A stretch of DNA of 64,000 nt, taken from positions 16,934-80,933 of the forward strand of contig JBMORM010000009.1 in assembly GCA_049322675.1 (NCBI GenBank), given 5' to 3'. Made by a program: the position numbers and the translations under genes. Below the pieces are notes generated by a model. It was not told the origin of the DNA. It made no database searches and worked only from the letters and a program-made list of their open reading frames with translations. This document shows positions 53,058 to 62,960 of this stretch, piece by piece (position 1 is the stretch's first letter; every line of letters begins with the position of its first letter). This stretch comes from Patescibacteria group bacterium. Lineage in GTDB: Bacteria > Patescibacteriota > JAHJAL01.

Positions 53058-53131
53058 GGGCGATTAGCTCAGATGGTTAGAGCGCGTCACTGATAATGAC
53101 GAGGTCGGAGGTTCGATTCCCCCATCGCCCA
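53058..53131 (+). tRNA. tRNA-Ile (anticodon GAU), CCA not encoded
   Basis: Cloverleaf folded by hand; anticodon loop CTGATAA; one A-C mismatch in the T stem. Confidence 0.85.
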
Positions 53132-53135
53132 CTTT

Positions 53136-53166: not shown

Positions 53167-54441
53167 TTAAATAGTAAATTTTGTTTCAGCAAAAAATTTG
53201 GTATGACTTTGACCAAAGTATCCATTTAATTCTGCTCGATATTGCCCTCGATCCAAAGAATATTTATATTGCCAGTTGGTTGTTATTTTTCTGGTGCTCC
53301 CAGGTAAAACGTTTTCAATATCGAGATCTATTTCAGCGATTATATTATTTTTTGCATCATAAACTGTGATGGCTCCAAATGGTTTAAAATGAACATTCCC
53401 AGTATTGGAAAATTCTAATATTAATTCAATGTTGTTAGTATTTTTATTTATAGAAGAATAAAATTTTTCCACTGATCCACTTTCGGAAAGTTCACTACCG
53501 TTGACTCTGAGTAATACCAATGATCCGATCCCACTTTGTACAGCTAATTTGTTTGGATCAGAATTTTGATCTGAATTTTTAGTCATAAAAGTTAATGCAG
53601 CATAACGTCCACCGGCCTTGGCGTCTGGGGGTATACTTAAGTGAAATTTTATTTCTTTTTGACTTGCTGGTTCTAATACTATTTGAGGTGGATCAAAACT
53701 AATCCAATCTTTCATGGCATAATCTGTGTTTTTGTCTGTCATTTCCGGAACTCCATCTGAGTTTCCTTCTTTAGGTAAAAAGTTTTGAATTGATATTTCC
53801 AGCAACATAGGTTTGCTGCTAGGATTCTTTATTGTTTCAACAATAGACAATTGTTCACCTGGATTTCCCGTCAGCTCGTCAAATAATACGGGGTTGATTT
53901 TTGGCGCTTGATTAGCATAATTGGTTGGTTCATCGATTGTTTCAATGTTATTTTCTGAGCTTGAAATACTATCCCCTTCTATCCCTCGGTCAATTGTTTC
54001 AGGTTTAAGAAGTAAATATTTTATTTTTAATATATATCCTTGGCTTTCCTTTTTAGTACTATAAACAACGCCACATCTTTCAGTGTCTTGGTTAATTTTG
54101 CCACATTCTTCTGGAAGTGATGGTTCTTTATCTATTACTTTTCTATTTCCGCTCCAAAGATATTCTATGTGATTGTCAGGCGGGTAAAAACCATTGATTG
54201 TGTAATATGCTTCCAGAGCTATAGTTATTTGTTCAGTTGTTGCTTTTATTTCATGATCTTTAGCTTTGGTTTGTACTTGGGAGATATCGCTTTGTATTTT
54301 TTTACTATCCAAAGTGGGAGAAATTTTTATTAAAACAAAAATAATAATTCCTCCAATTGTCAGCAAGGACAACATTATGGCGATGATCAGAAAGTAAATA
54401 ATTTTATTTTCTGATTTGTTTTGAAAAAAATTCGTTTCCAT
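53167..54441 (-). CDS. Secreted or membrane-anchored hypothetical protein with Ig-like beta-rich regions
   Basis: N-terminal TM IIYFLIIAIMLSLLTIGGIIIFVLI. Confidence 0.5.
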   Translation of the reverse strand: METNFFQNKSENKIIYFLIIAIMLSLLTIGGIIIFVLIKISPTLDSKKIQSDISQVQTKAKDHEIKATTEQITIALEAYYTINGFYPPDNHIEYLWSGNRKVIDKEPSLPEECGKINQDTERCGVVYSTKKESQGYILKIKYLLLKPETIDRGIEGDSISSSENNIETIDEPTNYANQAPKINPVLFDELTGNPGEQLSIVETIKNPSSKPMLLEISIQNFLPKEGNSDGVPEMTDKNTDYAMKDWISFDPPQIVLEPASQKEIKFHLSIPPDAKAGGRYAALTFMTKNSDQNSDPNKLAVQSGIGSLVLLRVNGSELSESGSVEKFYSSINKNTNNIELILEFSNTGNVHFKPFGAITVYDAKNNIIAEIDLDIENVLPGSTRKITTNWQYKYSLDRGQYRAELNGYFGQSHTKFFAETKFTI

Positions 54442-54483: not shown

Positions 54484-54700
54484 TTATACTTTTGCAAGAG
54501 TTAACCACATTTTAATGACAAGAAGATTAGACCTGACAAGTGAATCACAAAATGTAAACATTTTGCATCGACCTCTAAGGTAGTTATCACTTTTTGGAGA
54601 TCATATCGTTAAAGGCTAGAAACCAGAAAACGAAAAGGTAAACCAGTTACTAGTCCTTAACAAAATGATCTCCAAACAAGGAAACTAAATAATCCCTAGA

Positions 54701-56190
<1,490 letters not shown>

Positions 56191-56314
56191 TAATAAAAAG
56201 AAAAAAAATGCGAAATGAATTGAAATTGAACAAGGTCTTTATCTTCTTGCCAATAAAATGTTGTTAAAGTTACAAAATAAATACATGATTCACATGTATT
56301 ATCTTACATGTAAT

Positions 56315-56422: not shown

Positions 56423-56965
56423 TTAGTTGAGGACATTTTCGATACACGCCCAATCACTATCTTCGTTGGCAGGAATGATGATAGTGACTTCATTGCCCGG
56501 GTTCGCTTTAAAATATGTTACAGATGCCAATAAAACATTATATTTTTTTCCATTTGCCATGACAAAGAAATGAATTCCATCTTGCTGGAGCATTCCAATG
56601 ACTGATTTTCTATCAACCGGCCCGATTTGTTTGTAAATAAACTTTCCATCCGGCATAATGGTTAGTTTTAAAATATCTCCTGCAACTAACTTTGATTTAC
56701 TGGCATAGTTTGCCGGAACAGGATATTTTTTTCCCTCGGCGTCTATCATAGTTTGACCGTCAAAAACACCTTCGATTATTTTAGCTAGCGATTGATCTGA
56801 AATTGGAATGTTATTTTCTAATGGTTCAATATTTGCTTTCGCTTCTCTAATGGATTGTATTTCTCCTCCTTCTAATTCGGAGAGAATTGACTGTGCATTT
56901 TTTAGATTAGCAGATGCGATTTCTAATAATTTCTTTACAGATTCGATTTGAACATTGGTACTCAT
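56423..56965 (-). CDS. Hypothetical protein with an N-terminal coiled coil and a C-terminal beta-rich domain; strong SD AAGGAG
   Basis: ORF plus canonical SD 7 nt upstream. Confidence 0.5.
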   Translation of the reverse strand: MSTNVQIESVKKLLEIASANLKNAQSILSELEGGEIQSIREAKANIEPLENNIPISDQSLAKIIEGVFDGQTMIDAEGKKYPVPANYASKSKLVAGDILKLTIMPDGKFIYKQIGPVDRKSVIGMLQQDGIHFFVMANGKKYNVLLASVTYFKANPGNEVTIIIPANEDSDWACIENVLN

Positions 56966-57132: not shown

Positions 57133-57161
57133 TTGACTATATTCATTTTTTTATTTATAAT
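57133..57161 (+). promoter_or_regulatory. Near-consensus sigma70 promoter TTGACT-N17-TATAAT, ~60 nt upstream of the 57220 ATG
   Basis: Hexamers and spacer counted directly. Confidence 0.45.
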
Positions 57162-57219
57162 AGTTGGAGTGAGATAGTATTTGTGTATTATATAGTGATA
57201 GTAATATTTAAATAAAAAT

Positions 57220-57579
57220 ATGGTTGTTCTTTCGGGGTCTGATCAGATAGAAAATAATGACTTTAATCGTCAAGTTCCTACATTGGAGGGGCAGGATTTT
57301 TTGAGTCTAAATGAAAGCAAGCAACAATCCAAACCTGCTGATTTAAAGCCAAGATTTGGAGAAGGGTTAAAAGTTAATCAAAAAAAATCAGAATTGCCCG
57401 AGCGAACTATTGAAGGGTCACAAACAACTGAAAAGTCACAAACAACTCAACAGAAGAATAGTTTAACTCTAGGAAATAAGCCAATTGTTATGTTAGAGAA
57501 ACTTTACAATGATACAGCTTTTGATCCCTGCAAAGAAACTACAGAGTTAATTGAAATATTAAGAAGTTTAGATAAATAA
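57220..57579 (+). CDS. Small hydrophilic hypothetical protein (119 aa), first gene of the ATPase operon
   Basis: ORF only. Confidence 0.4.
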   Translation: MVVLSGSDQIENNDFNRQVPTLEGQDFLSLNESKQQSKPADLKPRFGEGLKVNQKKSELPERTIEGSQTTEKSQTTQQKNSLTLGNKPIVMLEKLYNDTAFDPCKETTELIEILRSLDK

Positions 57580-57606
57580 AAACAAAAGATAGATAATTTT
57601 CGTTTA

Positions 57607-60066
57607 ATGGATTTTTTCTATTATATTGGCTTTGCTTTACTAGGCTCAGTTTTTTTATTTTTGATACTGTGGCTTGTTTTTTTGTATGTAAAAAAACACT
57701 TACGCAACCAGGAGAGTTTCAAAAAGACTCTCAATATGACTTTTTTACAGGTTAGGGTTCAAAAAGAAGCTCCTGAAGATGAAAGAAATTTAAAGCCAAA
57801 GGAAGTGATTGCCGTGGCCGAACACTTATACAATAGTTTTTATAGTATATATGCAGGTGGATGGAAAAATAAAATATTAGGAGAGCAGCATATAAGTATC
57901 GAAATTGCCACCAAAAAGGGCATGACGGATTTTTACGTTGTTATTCCCAGAAATTTGGTTGAGTTGGTGCGTAAACAAATGAATGCACAATTGCCAGATG
58001 CCATAATTGATGAAGTAGAAGGATATAATATATTCAATCCAGACTCAAAGTATGATGCTACTAGTTTGACTTTTAATAAAAATTTTATGTATCCGATTAA
58101 AACATATGATCAGATGGAATCGGATCCATTGAACAACATTACAAATGCTTTAAGCAAATTAGCAGAAGATGAAGGTGCAGCAATACAGTTTTTGATAAGA
58201 CCAATAGACAACAAGTGGCACAGGAGAGGGAAATATGCTGCTCATAATATGCAGCAAGGTAAACCAATTTTTGAGCAGAGTTGGCCGCTTAAGGTTTTAA
58301 ATTTTATTGGTCAAGCAATTACTTTTTTAATTAGTAATATTGCTAATCAGGCTACGGGTAACGAAAAGAATGTCAAAGCTGAAGATAAACCAATACAATT
58401 GACGCAGGTTCAAACAGAATTAATCAAGGCTTTGGAAGAAAAATCATCAAAAGTTGGCTTTGAAACAATGATTAGAATTATTTCTTCCTCAAGCAATGAA
58501 TTGTCTGCGAAAAGCAATATGGATAATATTTTCAGTGCCTTCAGCCAATTTTTGTCGCCTGACATGAACGGTTTTAAAAAGATTAATGACAAAAAAGAAA
58601 AAATTGTTAAGGACTATATTTTTCGAAGATTTGTCGATGATAGTAAAATGATTTTGAATACAAAGGAGTTGGCAACTGTTATTCATTTTCCTAATCAACA
58701 CGTTGATACACCAAACCTAAACTGGCTTTTGGCTAAAAGAGCACCAATGCCTCCTGACGCTCCCACACAGGGTTTGCAGCTTGGAGTAAATGTGTATCGC
58801 GGAGTGAGAAAAAATGTTTACATTGAAGATGGCGACGAAGGACGCGGAAGACATATATATAGTTTGGGCCGTACCGGTAGTGGTAAAACTCAATTTCTTT
58901 TCAGTATGATGAAGCAAGACATGGACAGTGGAAAAGGTTTTTGCGTTTTGGACCCGCATGGTGATTTGGCTGAAAAGGTTTTATATCATGTTCCAAGGGA
59001 GAGAGCGGATGACGTAATATATTTTGATCCTGGTGGCGACTTGGAGATGCCTATGGGTCTAAATCTATTTGAAGCTAGAAGTGACGAAGAAAAGGAATTG
59101 AGAGCAATGTCTGCTTTGAATATAATGATAAAAATGTTTGGCGAAGAAATATTTAGTCCGCGTTTGCAGGACTATTTTCGCAATGGTTGTCTTACATTGA
59201 TGGCCGATGATGAAAATCCAGGGACAATTGTCGATATAGTAAACCTGTTTACGGATGAAGAATATCAACTGGAAAAGGTGGCTAAAGTAAAAAATCCGAC
59301 GGTAAAATCTTGGTGGATAAAAGTATTTGGTTCTATGGGCTCAAGAGAGAAAGAAGAAATGATCCCTTATTTTGCGGCAAAGTTCGGTCAGTTTATAACT
59401 AACGTTACTGTTCGAAACACTTTGGGGCAATCGAGATCATCTTTTAATATTCGACAAGTTATGGATGAAGGAAAAATATTGATTGCAAATCTATCAAAGG
59501 GAAAATTGGGAGAGATAAATTCAAACTTGATTGGTATGATCTTGGCTGAAGAAATCACCATGGCTGCGTTGGCTAGAACTGATCAACCAGAAGAAAACCG
59601 TCGGCCGTTTTATTTATATGTTGATGAGTTTCAAAATTTTGCGACAAAAACTTTTGCGACGATATTGTCGGAAGCCAGGAAATACAAACTAAATTTAATT
59701 ATTGCTCACCAATTTATAGACCAACTCAGTGTTAACGGCAAAGAAGAAATAAGGGATGCAGTATTTGGTAACTGCGGAACGTATATAATATTCAGAACTT
59801 CAGCTAAAGATGCGGAATTTTTAGAAAAAGAATTTATGCCGGTTTTCAATAAATCAGATATATCTAATATCGACCAGTATGTGGCATATGTAAAATTGAT
59901 GGTAAAAGGTACTGTTAGTAAGGGATTTTCTATGTCAACCGTCTATTTAAATAACCCTCATAAAGAACTTGGAGAGGCAATCAGACAATTGTCTCGTTTA
60001 AAATTTGGCAGAGAGAGAGCAGAGGTAGACGAGGATATTAGAAGGAGATTAAAATTATTAGGTTAA
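57607..60066 (+). CDS. N-terminally membrane-anchored FtsK/HerA-superfamily ATPase with type IV coupling protein (VirD4/TraG/TraD)-like motifs and an unusual ~390-aa pre-ATPase domain
   Basis: TM helix at residues 6-28; Walker A LGRTGSGKT; T4CP-like VLDPHGDL after the P-loop; ~230-aa insert; Walker B LYVDEFQNF; LIIAHQFIDQL and GNCGTYIIFR C-terminal motifs. Confidence 0.65.
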   Translation: MDFFYYIGFALLGSVFLFLILWLVFLYVKKHLRNQESFKKTLNMTFLQVRVQKEAPEDERNLKPKEVIAVAEHLYNSFYSIYAGGWKNKILGEQHISIEIATKKGMTDFYVVIPRNLVELVRKQMNAQLPDAIIDEVEGYNIFNPDSKYDATSLTFNKNFMYPIKTYDQMESDPLNNITNALSKLAEDEGAAIQFLIRPIDNKWHRRGKYAAHNMQQGKPIFEQSWPLKVLNFIGQAITFLISNIANQATGNEKNVKAEDKPIQLTQVQTELIKALEEKSSKVGFETMIRIISSSSNELSAKSNMDNIFSAFSQFLSPDMNGFKKINDKKEKIVKDYIFRRFVDDSKMILNTKELATVIHFPNQHVDTPNLNWLLAKRAPMPPDAPTQGLQLGVNVYRGVRKNVYIEDGDEGRGRHIYSLGRTGSGKTQFLFSMMKQDMDSGKGFCVLDPHGDLAEKVLYHVPRERADDVIYFDPGGDLEMPMGLNLFEARSDEEKELRAMSALNIMIKMFGEEIFSPRLQDYFRNGCLTLMADDENPGTIVDIVNLFTDEEYQLEKVAKVKNPTVKSWWIKVFGSMGSREKEEMIPYFAAKFGQFITNVTVRNTLGQSRSSFNIRQVMDEGKILIANLSKGKLGEINSNLIGMILAEEITMAALARTDQPEENRRPFYLYVDEFQNFATKTFATILSEARKYKLNLIIAHQFIDQLSVNGKEEIRDAVFGNCGTYIIFRTSAKDAEFLEKEFMPVFNKSDISNIDQYVAYVKLMVKGTVSKGFSMSTVYLNNPHKELGEAIRQLSRLKFGRERAEVDEDIRRRLKLLG

Positions 60067-60099
60067 TATTTTGATTTAAAAAAATAAAAATAAAAAAAA

Positions 60100-60330
60100 A
60101 TGAAGTCAATAAACGAAAGAAATGTAGACTCTTCTCTTTCGACACTTGAAGTATTAAAAAAACAATTTTCGGAAATGATGGGAACAATTGGAAAATTACG
60201 TGAAGAAAATATGGGTCTTAAATCTATGGTTGAAGAGTTGAAGAAGAGAAATTCTATGTTAGAAAAAAATATCGAAGAAATAAGTTTGATTGCCAATTTA
60301 AGAGTTAGTAAAAATAAAAATGAAAAATAG
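60100..60330 (+). CDS. Small coiled-coil protein (76 aa)
   Basis: Heptad-like KLREENMGLKSMVEELKKRNSMLEKNIEE. Confidence 0.4.
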   Translation: MKSINERNVDSSLSTLEVLKKQFSEMMGTIGKLREENMGLKSMVEELKKRNSMLEKNIEEISLIANLRVSKNKNEK

Positions 60331-61261
60331 CAATCTTGGTTCTTTAGAGAATAATAAACATCAATTTGCTTCGGAAGCAATAAGATATGATTTTTTAAAA
60401 AAGATTTTTTTAAAACAGGCAGATTTAACTTTGGAAAAAATCGATTTTAATAAGATTAAAGAAACTTATTCTGAATATTTAATAAAGAATAATTTAGATT
60501 TAAGGTTACTTAACAAGCTAATTCCAAAAGAATTAATTGGCTTTTCTAACGTAAATAGATCAGTGGCTGAATATTCTCCATTAACCAAAGAGATAAATTA
60601 TAATCTCTCATATCCTTTGATGGATTGGTTAGTAACAAATATTCATTGCAGTCATCTTGATAGAATTTTAAAACAGGATTTAATATCTTATACTTTTCAT
60701 GAGCAATCCCATGCACTTTCCGATAACGATGGTAAAATTGGATTTGAAAAAAGAATTGATGATAGTGGAGGTTTTAGAACATACAAAAAGAATTTTGAAT
60801 TGCTAAATGAAGGTATAACAAAAAAAGTAGAAAAAGAATTACTGGATTTATACAATAAAAAAAATCAGCTGGAGGTCAATAATAAGTCTAGTCTTTTTAG
60901 AAAAATTTATAATCTAATTCTTGATGGTTATTCAACATCAAGTTTTTTAACTGATACAATTATTTCTCGAATAAGCAAACAATGCGATCTCGATCAAGAA
61001 ATAGTATGGAGAGTGATTCTAAAGGGATATTTTAACAGTATTGATTTGACTAAAAATAAATATCAAAAAGTATTTACTAATCTCTTACCGGAAAATTTTT
61101 TCCATGAATTTAAAGAAATGCAACCTTGGCCTTCGATACACCAAAAAGCCCAATTATTTGTCATGATGGGAAAAATCGCTACAAGAGCGTTGCCTTTAAG
61201 AGATAAAAAACTAATTCGAAGATGGTTTAAAATGGTGGACAATTTTGAGGAAAAAAATTGA
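60320..61261 (+). CDS. Putative gluzincin-like metallopeptidase, paralog 1 (HEQSH ... NEGITK)
   Basis: HExxH followed ~40 aa later by the NEGIT motif; a shared C-terminal block with paralog 2. Confidence 0.5.
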   Translation: MKNSNLGSLENNKHQFASEAIRYDFLKKIFLKQADLTLEKIDFNKIKETYSEYLIKNNLDLRLLNKLIPKELIGFSNVNRSVAEYSPLTKEINYNLSYPLMDWLVTNIHCSHLDRILKQDLISYTFHEQSHALSDNDGKIGFEKRIDDSGGFRTYKKNFELLNEGITKKVEKELLDLYNKKNQLEVNNKSSLFRKIYNLILDGYSTSSFLTDTIISRISKQCDLDQEIVWRVILKGYFNSIDLTKNKYQKVFTNLLPENFFHEFKEMQPWPSIHQKAQLFVMMGKIATRALPLRDKKLIRRWFKMVDNFEEKN

Positions 61262-61341
61262 AATTAAAAAATAATCGGATCTAATTACAAAATTAATAAA
61301 AGCAATGTTAATAAGATTGGAAAAAATATAAAAACAAAAAA

Positions 61342-61497
61342 ATGAAAGAGAAAATAGGAGAAAATATTGGGGCTAGCCTTGATGAAATCTCTGATTTCCC
61401 TATCCCAAAAACAGCAAAGGATTTTTTTCAATTTGAATACTATCAAAAACTACTCAATCATGATTTGAAACAAATTCTGGATAGTAGTTTTTTCTAA
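61342..61497 (+). CDS. 51-aa ORF (MKEKIGENIGASLDEISDFPIPKTAKDFFQFEYYQKLLNHDLKQILDSSFF), possibly a detached N-terminal fragment of paralog 2
   Basis: Weak similarity to the paralog 1 N-terminal region (DFLKKIFLKQ); different frame from 61514. Confidence 0.2.
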   Translation: MKEKIGENIGASLDEISDFPIPKTAKDFFQFEYYQKLLNHDLKQILDSSFF

Positions 61498-61513
61498 GAT
61501 TAAATTTGATCAG

Positions 61514-62368
61514 TTGAAAGGCTTATTTGAGAAGTACCTATGCGAAGATGTCGGCATAGACAAAGACTATACAAAGAGAATCACAGGAAGATTCATCGAT
61601 AAGAAAAGATTTGAAAGTTCCAATTTGCAACATCTGCTGATGACTCCTCATCATGGAGCTTATTATAGTTTTCTTAATAAAAAAAATATACACCTCAATC
61701 CAATAGCGTTCTTCGAAAGAGGACTTATTGGGGATATAGCACGCGATCTTGGTAATGACAAATTAAAAAAACTGATAGATGATTCAATTTTACGAATTTT
61801 AATTCACGAAGAGACTCATGCTGTATCGCACGATATTTATCAAACTGAGGAACAACTCGGGAGGGAAAACACGCATTCTCTTGGATATAATATAATCACT
61901 ATTAATCGAAAGAAATTGGGAGTAGTTGAATTTTTATTTAGTAAATCGGAAAATATGTTGATAAATGAAGGGATTACGGATTTGATCGCTGACAAGATAG
62001 CCGACAAATACTATTTGAATAATAATATGGAAATTCCTCCAAGAGAAAATACAAATAAGCTTATTTATATGATAACTGGTCACGGTTATATTTCGACAAA
62101 AGAGATAATCAATGAATTAATTGATGAAATTTCAGACGAATGTCAGATTGATAAAAAAGTAATATGGGACAGATTGGTTAGGGATTATTTTGGTGGACTA
62201 GAAGGAAAAAAACAAATAATTGAAACTTTATTATCATGTTTTTCGCAGGATTTTTTGAAAAAATTTATAAAGATTAGCAATGAAAATAACTTGCGTAAAT
62301 TGATTAGAAATTATCTAATGAAGAATAAACCAATGGTTGAATGGAATGACGAGAAAAGAAAAAAATAG
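61514..62368 (+). CDS. Putative gluzincin-like metallopeptidase, paralog 2 (HEETHAVSH ... NEGITD); the ORF begins at TTG right after an in-frame TGA; the first ATG is at 61640
   Basis: HExxHxxxH plus NEGITD; aligns with 60320-61261 over the IY..GY.S..IS..C..D...W....YF block. Confidence 0.5.
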   Translation: MKGLFEKYLCEDVGIDKDYTKRITGRFIDKKRFESSNLQHLLMTPHHGAYYSFLNKKNIHLNPIAFFERGLIGDIARDLGNDKLKKLIDDSILRILIHEETHAVSHDIYQTEEQLGRENTHSLGYNIITINRKKLGVVEFLFSKSENMLINEGITDLIADKIADKYYLNNNMEIPPRENTNKLIYMITGHGYISTKEIINELIDEISDECQIDKKVIWDRLVRDYFGGLEGKKQIIETLLSCFSQDFLKKFIKISNENNLRKLIRNYLMKNKPMVEWNDEKRKK

Positions 62369-62416
62369 GCAATTTTTTTCATTTAGAATTGGAGAATATA
62401 GGGTGATGTTACTTAT

Positions 62417-62445
62417 TTGCGTCTTTTTTGCGATTTTGGTATAAT
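62417..62445 (+). promoter_or_regulatory. Promoter TTGCGT-N17-TGgTATAAT (extended -10) upstream of rpmE
   Basis: Counted directly. Confidence 0.45.
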
Positions 62446-62471
62446 TCTTTTGTTATTAAATAATTTTTATC

Positions 62472-62888
62472 ATGAAAAAAGAAATACATCCAAAATATGC
62501 TAAGTCGGTGATAACCTGTGCATGCGGTAATGTGATTGAAACAAGATCTATTAAACCTGAAATGAGAATCGAAATATGTTCAAATTGCCATCCGGTATTT
62601 ACCGGAAAGCAAAAGTACGTTGACACTGAAGGTCGTCTTGAACGTTTTCAGGCAATGTTTTCTGCTAGTTTAGAAAAGGGGAAAACAAAAAAAGATAAGA
62701 AAGTAAGAGTGCGAAGAAAAAAAGTTAGTATGGATATAAAAAATATTATTGCCGATCAAGAAAAAAGAAAAAACGAGAGACAAGCTCTAAAGAAGAAAAA
62801 AGAGATTAAAAAGAATGAAGAAGAGGCGAAAAGTGTTAAAGTTGTAAAGAAGGCCGCGAAGGCAAAAGAAAAAAAGAAGGATTTGTAA
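62472..62888 (+). CDS. rpmE: 50S ribosomal protein L31 with a Lys-rich C-terminal extension
   Basis: MKKEIHPKY...C.C...C..CHP zinc ribbon. Confidence 0.85.
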
Positions 62889-62897
62889 CTACAGAAA

Positions 62898-62960
62898 ACA
62901 AGAGTTGCTCAAAGGTAACTCTTGTTTATTAATTAAGACGAGAGCATTCTTGTCTTTTTT
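62898..62960 (+). terminator. Two tandem hairpins after rpmE; the second (aagacgag/cttgtctt) is followed by T6
   Basis: Read directly. Confidence 0.5.

Follow-up and report, generated by a model that had tools for sequence, protein, structure and literature searches.

A probable composite locus in a Patescibacteria genome: a DUF8128-containing, coupling protein-like ATPase next to a lineage-specific pair of zincin-like genes

Do a coupling protein-like ATPase and two putative metallopeptidases that are encoded side by side in a Patescibacteria genome act together, or are they neighbours by chance? The question is raised by a 64,000-nucleotide stretch of the contig JBMORM010000009.1 (the whole of this stretch is called the window below), in which five genes on the plus strand, located between a 16S rRNA gene and rpmE, encode a small hydrophilic protein of 119 amino acids (aa), a large ATPase (819 aa), a coiled-coil protein (76 aa) and two proteins with an HExxH motif. 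The initial annotation of this stretch treated the ATPase and the metallopeptidases as parts of one module. Our analysis suggests that the locus is probably composite, with a vertically inherited core unit of the Candidate Phyla Radiation (CPR) standing next to an unrelated, lineage-specific insertion. The initial annotation was largely accurate at the gene level, and its system-level interpretation is unsupported: the five genes are neighbours by chance and do not constitute a novel system of secretion or defence. The CPR/Patescibacteria origin of the stretch is supported by homologue searches.

The neighbourhoods of 83 ATPase loci were compared, among them 80 species loci from a genome scan with one genome per species. 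In the closest relative, L007, the gene order is identical to that in the window: a gene for a 180-aa protein (p180) on the minus strand is followed by genes for a 114-aa protein, the ATPase (99% identical), proteins of 76, 319 and 354 aa, and rpmE. In the next relatives, L001 and L003 (ATPase 81% and 73% identical, respectively), the order is a small open reading frame (ORF), the ATPase gene, rpmE, prfA and prmC, and the gap between the ATPase gene and rpmE carries no genes (64 bp in L001, non-coding in L003). Phmmer searches with the 76-aa and HExxH proteins detected them as neighbours in only one of the 83 ATPase loci, which is L007, and the family hidden Markov model (HMM) gave the same result for the HExxH proteins; in each of the 80 species loci that the genome scan supplied, an HExxH neighbour is missing. 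Furthermore, no such ATPase is encoded within 7-8 kb of three distant HExxH loci located on long contigs. These loci are found next to adenylate/cytidylate kinase and ribosomal protein genes, next to genes for TrmB regulators and redox proteins, and next to metallo-beta-lactamase genes.

The pairing is confined to the window and L007 and is absent in the next relatives, and the block of the coiled-coil gene and the two zincin-like genes is therefore a lineage-specific insertion into the ATPase-rpmE unit. As judged from sequence comparison, it would most parsimoniously be explained by a recent event in the common ancestor of L007 and the window genome, in which three low-GC genes entered the spacer between the ATPase gene and rpmE. 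Indeed, the GC content is 25-28% over positions 60000-61400 (the coiled-coil gene and most of the first zincin-like gene) versus 34-40% in the ATPase gene. The right-hand edge of the insert is rpmE (ribosomal protein L31; 62472-62888, plus strand), as follows from the ORF listing and the gene order in the relatives. Signatures of a mobile element were considered and rejected: no meaningful direct or inverted repeats, no tRNA gene and no integrase gene were found around the insert. The ATPase-plus-metallopeptidase unit is not conserved, and there is therefore no case for following it up as a novel system of secretion or defence.

The 819-aa protein (57607-60066) is a membrane-anchored ATPase that combines a DUF8128 domain with a motor resembling the type IV coupling proteins (T4CPs) of the VirD4/TrwB/VirB4 clade. 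A hydropathy scan revealed a single N-terminal transmembrane helix (residues ~4-30, 57616-57696) followed by KKHLR, and this helix is the only segment of the protein hydrophobic enough to cross the membrane. It is followed by an alpha/beta domain (residues ~43-360, 57733-58686; Pfam DUF8128, PF26449) and a VirB4/VirD4-clade P-loop ATPase domain (residues ~381-819, 58747-60063) with a helical insert at residues 493-659. The motifs described initially, i.e. the P-loop, DPxGD, a DEFQ Walker B and a QxxxQL-like motif, could all be located: Walker A is GRTGSGKT (residues 421-428, 58867-58890), followed by DPHGD (449-453), Walker B DEFQ (673-676, 59623-59634) and HQxxxQL (701-707), all of these features lying on the plus strand. 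In an alignment of 101 homologues, with all of which the window protein is collinear, Walker A, DPHG, Walker B and HQ...QL show little or no variation; G421, G424, G426 and K427 of Walker A and D673, E674, F675 and Q676 of Walker B do not vary at all. An AlphaFold2 model based on these 101 homologues (mean pLDDT, the predicted local distance difference test score, 89.5) shows a long N-terminal helix (2-42), the alpha/beta region (~43-360) and the motor with helices at 493-659. The insert of ~230 aa that had been listed among its features corresponds to these helices and is the normal T4CP helical domain.

The T4CP-like nature of the ATPase, proposed initially, was confirmed by HMM searches. 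Three T4CP Pfam families match within residues 415-740 above their cut-offs: TrwB_AAD_bind (residues 415-736, E 2.5e-10, 40.3 bits versus a cut-off of 20.5), T4SS-DNA_transf (E 2.7e-09, 36.9 versus 20.1 bits) and TraG-D_C (E 1.6e-08, 34.9 versus 22 bits). An identical gene in another locus (L096) carries the precomputed Pfam annotation PF26449 + PF02534 + PF10412 + PF12696. The family profile finds TrwB (E 4e-7) and DotL (E 6.6e-5) in the PDB, and 353 residues of the model align structurally to TrwB, placing the protein in the FtsK-HerA superfamily; note that these whole-model matches are dominated by the motor domain and give no fold assignment for DUF8128. HerA families stay below their cut-offs (DUF87 19.9 versus 23.2 bits, covering only residues 415-456; NCBIfam HerA_antiphage 12.2 versus 800 bits), and the protein does not match the HerA layout of a DUF87/HerA central domain with an N-terminal HAS barrel. 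The ATPase does not belong to the VirB4-type sequence family and has no VirB3, VirB6 or VirB8 neighbours, nor does it have the motor family, the multi-pass membrane domain and the gamma domain of FtsK/SpoIIIE. In PADLOC, its motor domain alone is matched (mad8, E 2e-16, and weak HerA hits); no PADLOC defence system has its full protein set at the locus, and the 119-aa protein and both zincin-like proteins have no match there.

With VirD4, TrwB, TraD and DotL the window ATPase thus shares the clade of P-loop motor with its set of motifs, the all-alpha domain between Walker A and B, and the N-terminal membrane anchor. Canonical T4CPs usually carry two transmembrane helices, whereas the window protein has one. 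It differs from them also in its extra cytoplasmic DUF8128 domain (~320 aa) and in falling far below every curated conjugative TraD/VirD4 model of NCBIfam (SXT_TraD 45.9 versus 366 bits; CD1115 family 44.5 versus 250 bits). Furthermore, its gene is chromosomal, vertically inherited and situated in housekeeping surroundings, and no relaxase, VirB4 or type IV secretion system (T4SS) gene is present among the larger ORFs of the window. Twenty ORFs of at least 344 aa, including all ORFs of at least 570 aa, were scanned; they have housekeeping Pfam domains or none, and VirB4, relaxase and integrase were found in none of the 20, in agreement with the initial description of the surroundings and of the missing partners.

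That description had also called the ATPase an orphan, which is misleading, because its family occurs throughout the CPR. A protein search with the ATPase yielded 1,723 homologues, and the best 120 of them share 43-81% identity over 94-100% of the query (except for one fragment with 80% coverage) and the same Pfam set. The combination of DUF8128 (PF26449) and T4CP domains is shared with its 1,700+ homologues, and the window protein is collinear with the best 120 over the full length. ATPase loci with full-length homologues at ~40% identity were found in at least 597 species of all major CPR classes, including metagenome-assembled genomes (MAGs) labelled Doudna-, Peregrini-, Peri-, Gracili-, Woese-, Curtiss-, Uhr-, Magasanik-, Berkel-, Sung-, Morani- and Saccharibacteria. 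The neighbours in the relatives are housekeeping genes, e.g. for ribosomal proteins, SecY and aminoacyl-tRNA synthetases, or dnaX, prfA and prmC; synteny with dnaX recurs in 20 loci. Between the window and L007, the protein is 99.4% identical at a synonymous divergence of ~0.28, corresponding to a ratio of nonsynonymous to synonymous divergence (dN/dS) of 0.009. The ATPase gene is a CPR core gene that is inherited vertically under extreme purifying selection. In some Saccharibacteria-labelled MAGs, a longer run of unannotated genes precedes the ATPase gene in the same direction (e.g. 1038, 231, 99, 439 and 141 aa; L035 1477-7828, L075 160-2082, L037 30-1400), so that the core unit of these bacteria may comprise more genes.

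T4CP homologues lacking a T4SS neighbourhood have been documented before. Quinonero-Coronel et al. 2025 (PMC12102498) detected 5,713 VirD4-type T4CP homologues among 3,035 Patescibacteria genomes, of which 2,918 had at least one (about two per genome on average), whereas VirB4 was present in 2,417 genomes (~80%); just 148 of the 5,713 t4cp genes were near virB4, and the authors suggested a possible exaptation of t4cp. The window ATPase agrees with these proteins in phylum, VirD4-type assignment, distance from virB4 and possible exaptation, and nothing substantial sets it apart from them; the DUF8128 domain, the small upstream ORF and the phage homologues described below are not mentioned in that paper. 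The window ATPase is thus an unexceptional member of a CPR family that is already known but not characterised functionally; the family is more widely distributed than VirB4 and among the most widespread and most constrained CPR families without an assigned function.

Does this family serve a T4SS? A possible, though doubtful, explanation is that the genome encodes, at another place, a T4SS of the Patescibacteria MPF-FATA type, that the ATPase is its coupling protein and would deliver substrates to its channel, and that the zincins are unrelated passengers. The sequence families and the structure are those of a T4CP, T4CP genes are often remote from virB4, and most Patescibacteria genomes have VirB4. 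However, the T4CP homologues are more widely distributed than VirB4 (see the genome counts above), and S. epibionticum can dispense with the t4cp homologue discussed for it but not with its T4SS. Transposon sequencing of S. epibionticum ML1 (supplement of PMC10633639) in fact placed two T4CP-like genes in opposite classes: SEML1_0293 is non-essential, and SEML1_0142 is essential and preceded, 13 bp upstream, by the small essential gene SEML1_0141 (139 aa). The Pfam domain coordinates of SEML1_0293 resemble those of the window ATPase, and the SEML1_0141-SEML1_0142 layout mirrors the small ORF and ATPase gene of the window. Whether the family works for a T4SS or alone bears on the exchange of macromolecules between episymbionts and their hosts.

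The occurrence of DUF8128 and the ATPase domain in phages of Firmicutes also speaks against the service in a T4SS. The PHROGs family phrog_5156 matches residues 43-812 of the ATPase (E 2.3e-86), so that the phage proteins are collinear with nearly the whole protein, including most of DUF8128. Tblastn detected gp156 of Bacillus phage G (JN638751.1; 24% identity over residues 97-774) and homologues in other Bacillus, Geobacillus and Clostridium phages (OR096218.1, MW478291.1). In the phages vB_BceS-M2 and phiCp-D, the gene is found among early, replication and recombination genes rather than in a cellular housekeeping setting, and no other T4SS component is annotated in these two regions. The DUF8128-motor architecture can therefore exist apart from an annotated T4SS, at least in the phage regions inspected. 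Note that some of the phage homologues are mis-annotated as 'lipid A export ATP-binding/permease' proteins. It is conceivable, although we consider it unlikely, that the ATPase and the small upstream protein form a free-standing translocase for DNA or protein that needs no T4SS channel, is present in nearly all CPR bacteria and is shared with Firmicutes phages; such a translocase could transport DNA, either the cell's own or that of the host, at the membrane of an episymbiont. That the ATPase works alone is likewise a tentative proposal, which we regard as rather doubtful.

The small upstream ORF (119 aa; 57220-57579, plus strand) ends 27 bp before the ATPase gene. Its product is hydrophilic, probably largely disordered, and matches no family in Pfam, NCBIfam, PADLOC or PHROGs. 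It shares 73% identity with its orthologue in L007 (114 aa), at a dN/dS of ~1.4, as would be expected of either an adaptor that is mostly disordered or a peptide under hardly any constraint; conservation is confined to ~25 residues at the N terminus and ~20 at the C terminus, and the proportion of synonymous differences (0.08) is unusually low against 0.24-0.45 in the neighbouring genes. A small ORF on the same strand just 5' of the ATPase gene is present in roughly half of the 83 loci, with clade-specific sequences: ~20 loci share the C-terminal motif WLKxIPGVNKFFLEQEAKIKTDKI, a second form is found in Woese-/Curtissbacteria-labelled and related loci, and a third one in some Saccharibacteria-labelled loci. 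The small upstream ORFs of the window's relatives have only a faint C-terminal helix in common. The 119-aa ORF is the positional equivalent of these small ORFs in many CPR clades, and such a small, fast-evolving upstream ORF is the only widely recurring companion of the ATPase.

For the core unit of the composite locus, we therefore consider a membrane-anchored hexameric translocase the most likely reading of the ATPase. The protein would assemble into a membrane-anchored hexameric ring, and this ring would thread a polymer at the expense of ATP, either across the membrane or as far as the membrane; DNA is the most probable polymer. The product of the small upstream ORF may serve as a lineage-specific adaptor of the ring. 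The ring would probably be independent of an adjacent virB4 cluster, and possibly of a virB4 cluster altogether. In the insert, the 76-aa coiled-coil protein would be translationally coupled to the 313-aa gluzincin-like protein, followed by the second, paralogous and frameshifted zincin; the zincins are most likely cytoplasmic zinc peptidases, as predicted from their sequences, and would act independently of the ATPase.

Several points weigh against this interpretation. The substrate of the ATPase could be a protein, since T4CPs can also move proteins. The upstream protein, whose tie to the ATPase is putative, is barely conserved even within its clade, and its dN/dS could simply mean that it is hardly constrained. 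Either the non-essential SEML1_0293 or the essential SEML1_0142 may be the S. epibionticum orthologue. Finally, a regulatory or functional link between the ATPase and the inserted genes may exist in this particular lineage, given their possible co-transcription with rpmE (see below).

An FtsK/SpoIIIE-like pump for chromosome segregation or DNA uptake, acting at the membrane during division or competence, appears improbable. The ATPase does belong to the FtsK-HerA superfamily, it is a membrane-anchored core protein under extreme purifying selection, its gene is repeatedly syntenic with dnaX, and the phage homologues lie in replication/recombination modules. However, a gamma domain is missing, there is a single transmembrane helix, and the synteny with dnaX may reflect nothing but inherited gene order.

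The insert opens with the gene for the 76-aa coiled-coil protein (60100-60330, plus strand), which overlaps the gene of the first zincin-like protein by 11 nt. This protein has a homologue in L007 only (72% identity, dN/dS 0.25) and yields weak coiled-coil-type Pfam hits; its matches in PADLOC and PHROGs are weak as well (E 0.003-0.03, two of them in PADLOC at E 0.01-0.03). The first zincin-like protein (313 aa; 60320-61261, plus strand) carries HEQSH (60698-60712) and NEG (60806-60814), and the second one (61342-62368, plus strand) HEETH (61805-61819) and NEG (61964-61972). The two are distant paralogues (24% identity, E 4e-12), as stated initially. When 5.8 billion proteins were searched with the 313-aa protein, one close relative (that in L007) and one distant relative were found, and an exhaustive HMMER search with the 284-aa part of the second one led to 49 clusters of ~300-aa proteins. 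HExxH, a Gly, NEG(I/V)T and a Tyr are invariant in alignments of 38 and 23 members. In the predicted model, helix 160-181 carries NEG(I/V)T, whose Glu may be the third zinc ligand.

The initial annotation had called these proteins gluzincin-like. The zincin fold and motif are supported, but no named family, M1 or other: the proteins have no Pfam, NCBIfam, PADLOC or PHROGs family and no sequence relative in the PDB, and a Foldseek search with the model gave nothing significant, although the top non-significant hits were also zincins. M1 aminopeptidases are characterized by the GxMEN exopeptidase motif, an HExxH-x18-E spacing and an N-terminal beta domain. Compared to known gluzincins (M1, minigluzincins, Wss1/SprT-type), the window proteins have neither GxMEN nor the M1 N-terminal domain, the distance from HExxH to NEG (~30-48 residues) exceeds the 18 residues of M1 enzymes, and Peptidase_M1 of Pfam does not match. 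They belong to a small, sporadic and uncharacterised zincin family of CPR bacteria (HExxH...NEGxT) that is limited in scope. No transmembrane-like hydrophobic segment was detected in either protein, and they are therefore probably cytoplasmic.

The second zincin-like gene is interrupted by a frameshift, so that only part of the original statement on five co-directional genes holds: the ORFs are present, but the fifth gene starts at 61342 and is frameshifted in a T6 run. A 51-aa ORF (61342-61497) and a 284-aa ORF with a TTG start (61514-62368), both on the plus strand, are together collinear with the intact 354-aa protein of L007. An extra T in the T6 homopolymer (61488-61493) causes a +1 frameshift, and the removal of one T restores an ORF of 341 aa. 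The same frameshift is present in an independent assembly of SRR32167788; the gene could be a young pseudogene or contain a slippage-prone tract. Both zincin genes are real, because they are under purifying selection (dN/dS versus L007 0.16 for the 313-aa protein and 0.12 for the 284-aa part of the second one). Divergence between the window and L007 is much faster for the zincins (83-88% identity) than for the core genes on either side (99%).

The block of the coiled-coil and the two zincin-like genes might represent a small mobile cassette involved in conflict, encoding either toxin and immunity functions or an anti-phage protease together with a coiled-coil regulator, that landed next to the ATPase by chance. 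The low GC content of the block, its restriction to one lineage, its fast evolution and the duplicated paralogues would agree with this idea. A tyrosine recombinase gene lies 0.2-8 kb from two of the three distant HExxH loci (L012 16301-17122, L013 7931-8851), in one case together with a ParE-like gene (L012 14212-14364), and this hints weakly that zincins of this family may reside on mobile DNA. We nevertheless assign a low probability to a conflict cassette: PADLOC and PHROGs searches gave nothing significant for any of the three proteins, tblastn did not find the second zincin in the phage collection, repeats, integrase and tRNA genes are missing at the insertion site, and the third distant member (L011) is the one located among kinase and ribosomal protein genes.

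Transcription of the cluster was considered as well. A sigma-70-like promoter candidate (TTGACT-17-TATAAT; 57133-57161, plus strand) is located 59 bp 5' of the 119-aa ORF. The near-consensus character noticed initially was reproduced (11 of 12 matches to the hexamers), but such sites are not enriched across the AT-rich region (35 observed versus 30.3 +/- 6.5 in shuffled sequences), and the promoter is plausible, yet statistically undistinctive. No terminator-like hairpin was found from 57300 to 62900, i.e. from the start of the first ORF to the end of rpmE, the sole such hairpins 3' of the ATPase gene being located at 62919-62956; read-through into rpmE and co-transcription of all five genes with rpmE are therefore plausible. 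A minimal translocation module, in which the zincins would either be exported as effectors or serve as proteases for processing, with the 76-aa protein as adaptor or chaperone, is very improbable all the same: the genes are co-directional, tightly spaced and not separated by a terminator, L007 has retained the arrangement despite a synonymous divergence of ~0.3-0.6, and the zincins lack transmembrane segments and diverge fast under continuing purifying selection, but the pairing is missing in the next relatives and in all 80 species loci, members of the HExxH family elsewhere are not near such ATPases, one zincin is frameshifted in the window genome, and the ATPase itself shows no lineage-specific change.

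The initial annotation placed the cluster directly between the 16S rRNA gene and rpmE. Both flanks are correct, but the conserved p180 gene (180 aa; 56423-56965, minus strand), divergent from the five-gene cluster, was overlooked. The p180 protein consists of an N-terminal helix, a variable linker and a conserved C-terminal domain of ~115 aa, which is built from two internally repeated units (hhalign E 1.5e-4); dN/dS versus L007 is 0.07. Homologues are found beside the ATPase gene in 27 of the 83 loci, and in 20 of 64 informative species loci p180 is directly downstream of it on the same strand. Conversely, a reciprocal metagenome scan revealed the ATPase beside 14 of 54 informative p180 loci. 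We considered p180 as an obligate partner of the ATPase and rejected this idea, the ATPase being present in just these 14 loci and a GtrA-like gene and dnaX being more constant neighbours; the adjacency of p180 and ATPase is regarded as partly inherited gene order. The best PDB match of p180 is DotY, in the same Legionella coupling-complex entry as the DotL hit of the ATPase, but it is non-significant (E 0.17). An assignment as an AbrB/MazE-type domain was not adopted either: three of 27 members match MazE_antitoxin at E ~0.03, a mere lead. No tblastn match pointing to a phage origin was found in the phage collection.

The p180 family of CPR bacteria is well conserved and lacks annotation; its motif is EGVFDGQxMxGxDGxxYxVPxNYASKSKLVxGDxLKLTI...YKQIGPVER. 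Among 78 metagenome loci (L097-L176), a gene for a GtrA-like membrane protein comes next in 32 (at a distance of ~30 bp) and dnaX in 37, and MraZ/RsmH or rplJ/rplL genes are often found upstream.

The 16S rRNA gene of the window (54700-56197, minus strand) is solitary, as 23S and 5S rRNA genes were not detected in the 64-kb window. A gene for tRNA-Ile(GAT) (53058-53132, plus strand) lies near it on the opposite strand. The ORF at 53167-54441 (minus strand) encodes a 424-aa protein with an N-terminal transmembrane helix and a weakly matching WxL-interacting, peptidoglycan-binding-like domain; it diverges fast from its counterpart in L007 (74% identity, dN/dS 0.29), as a surface protein would.

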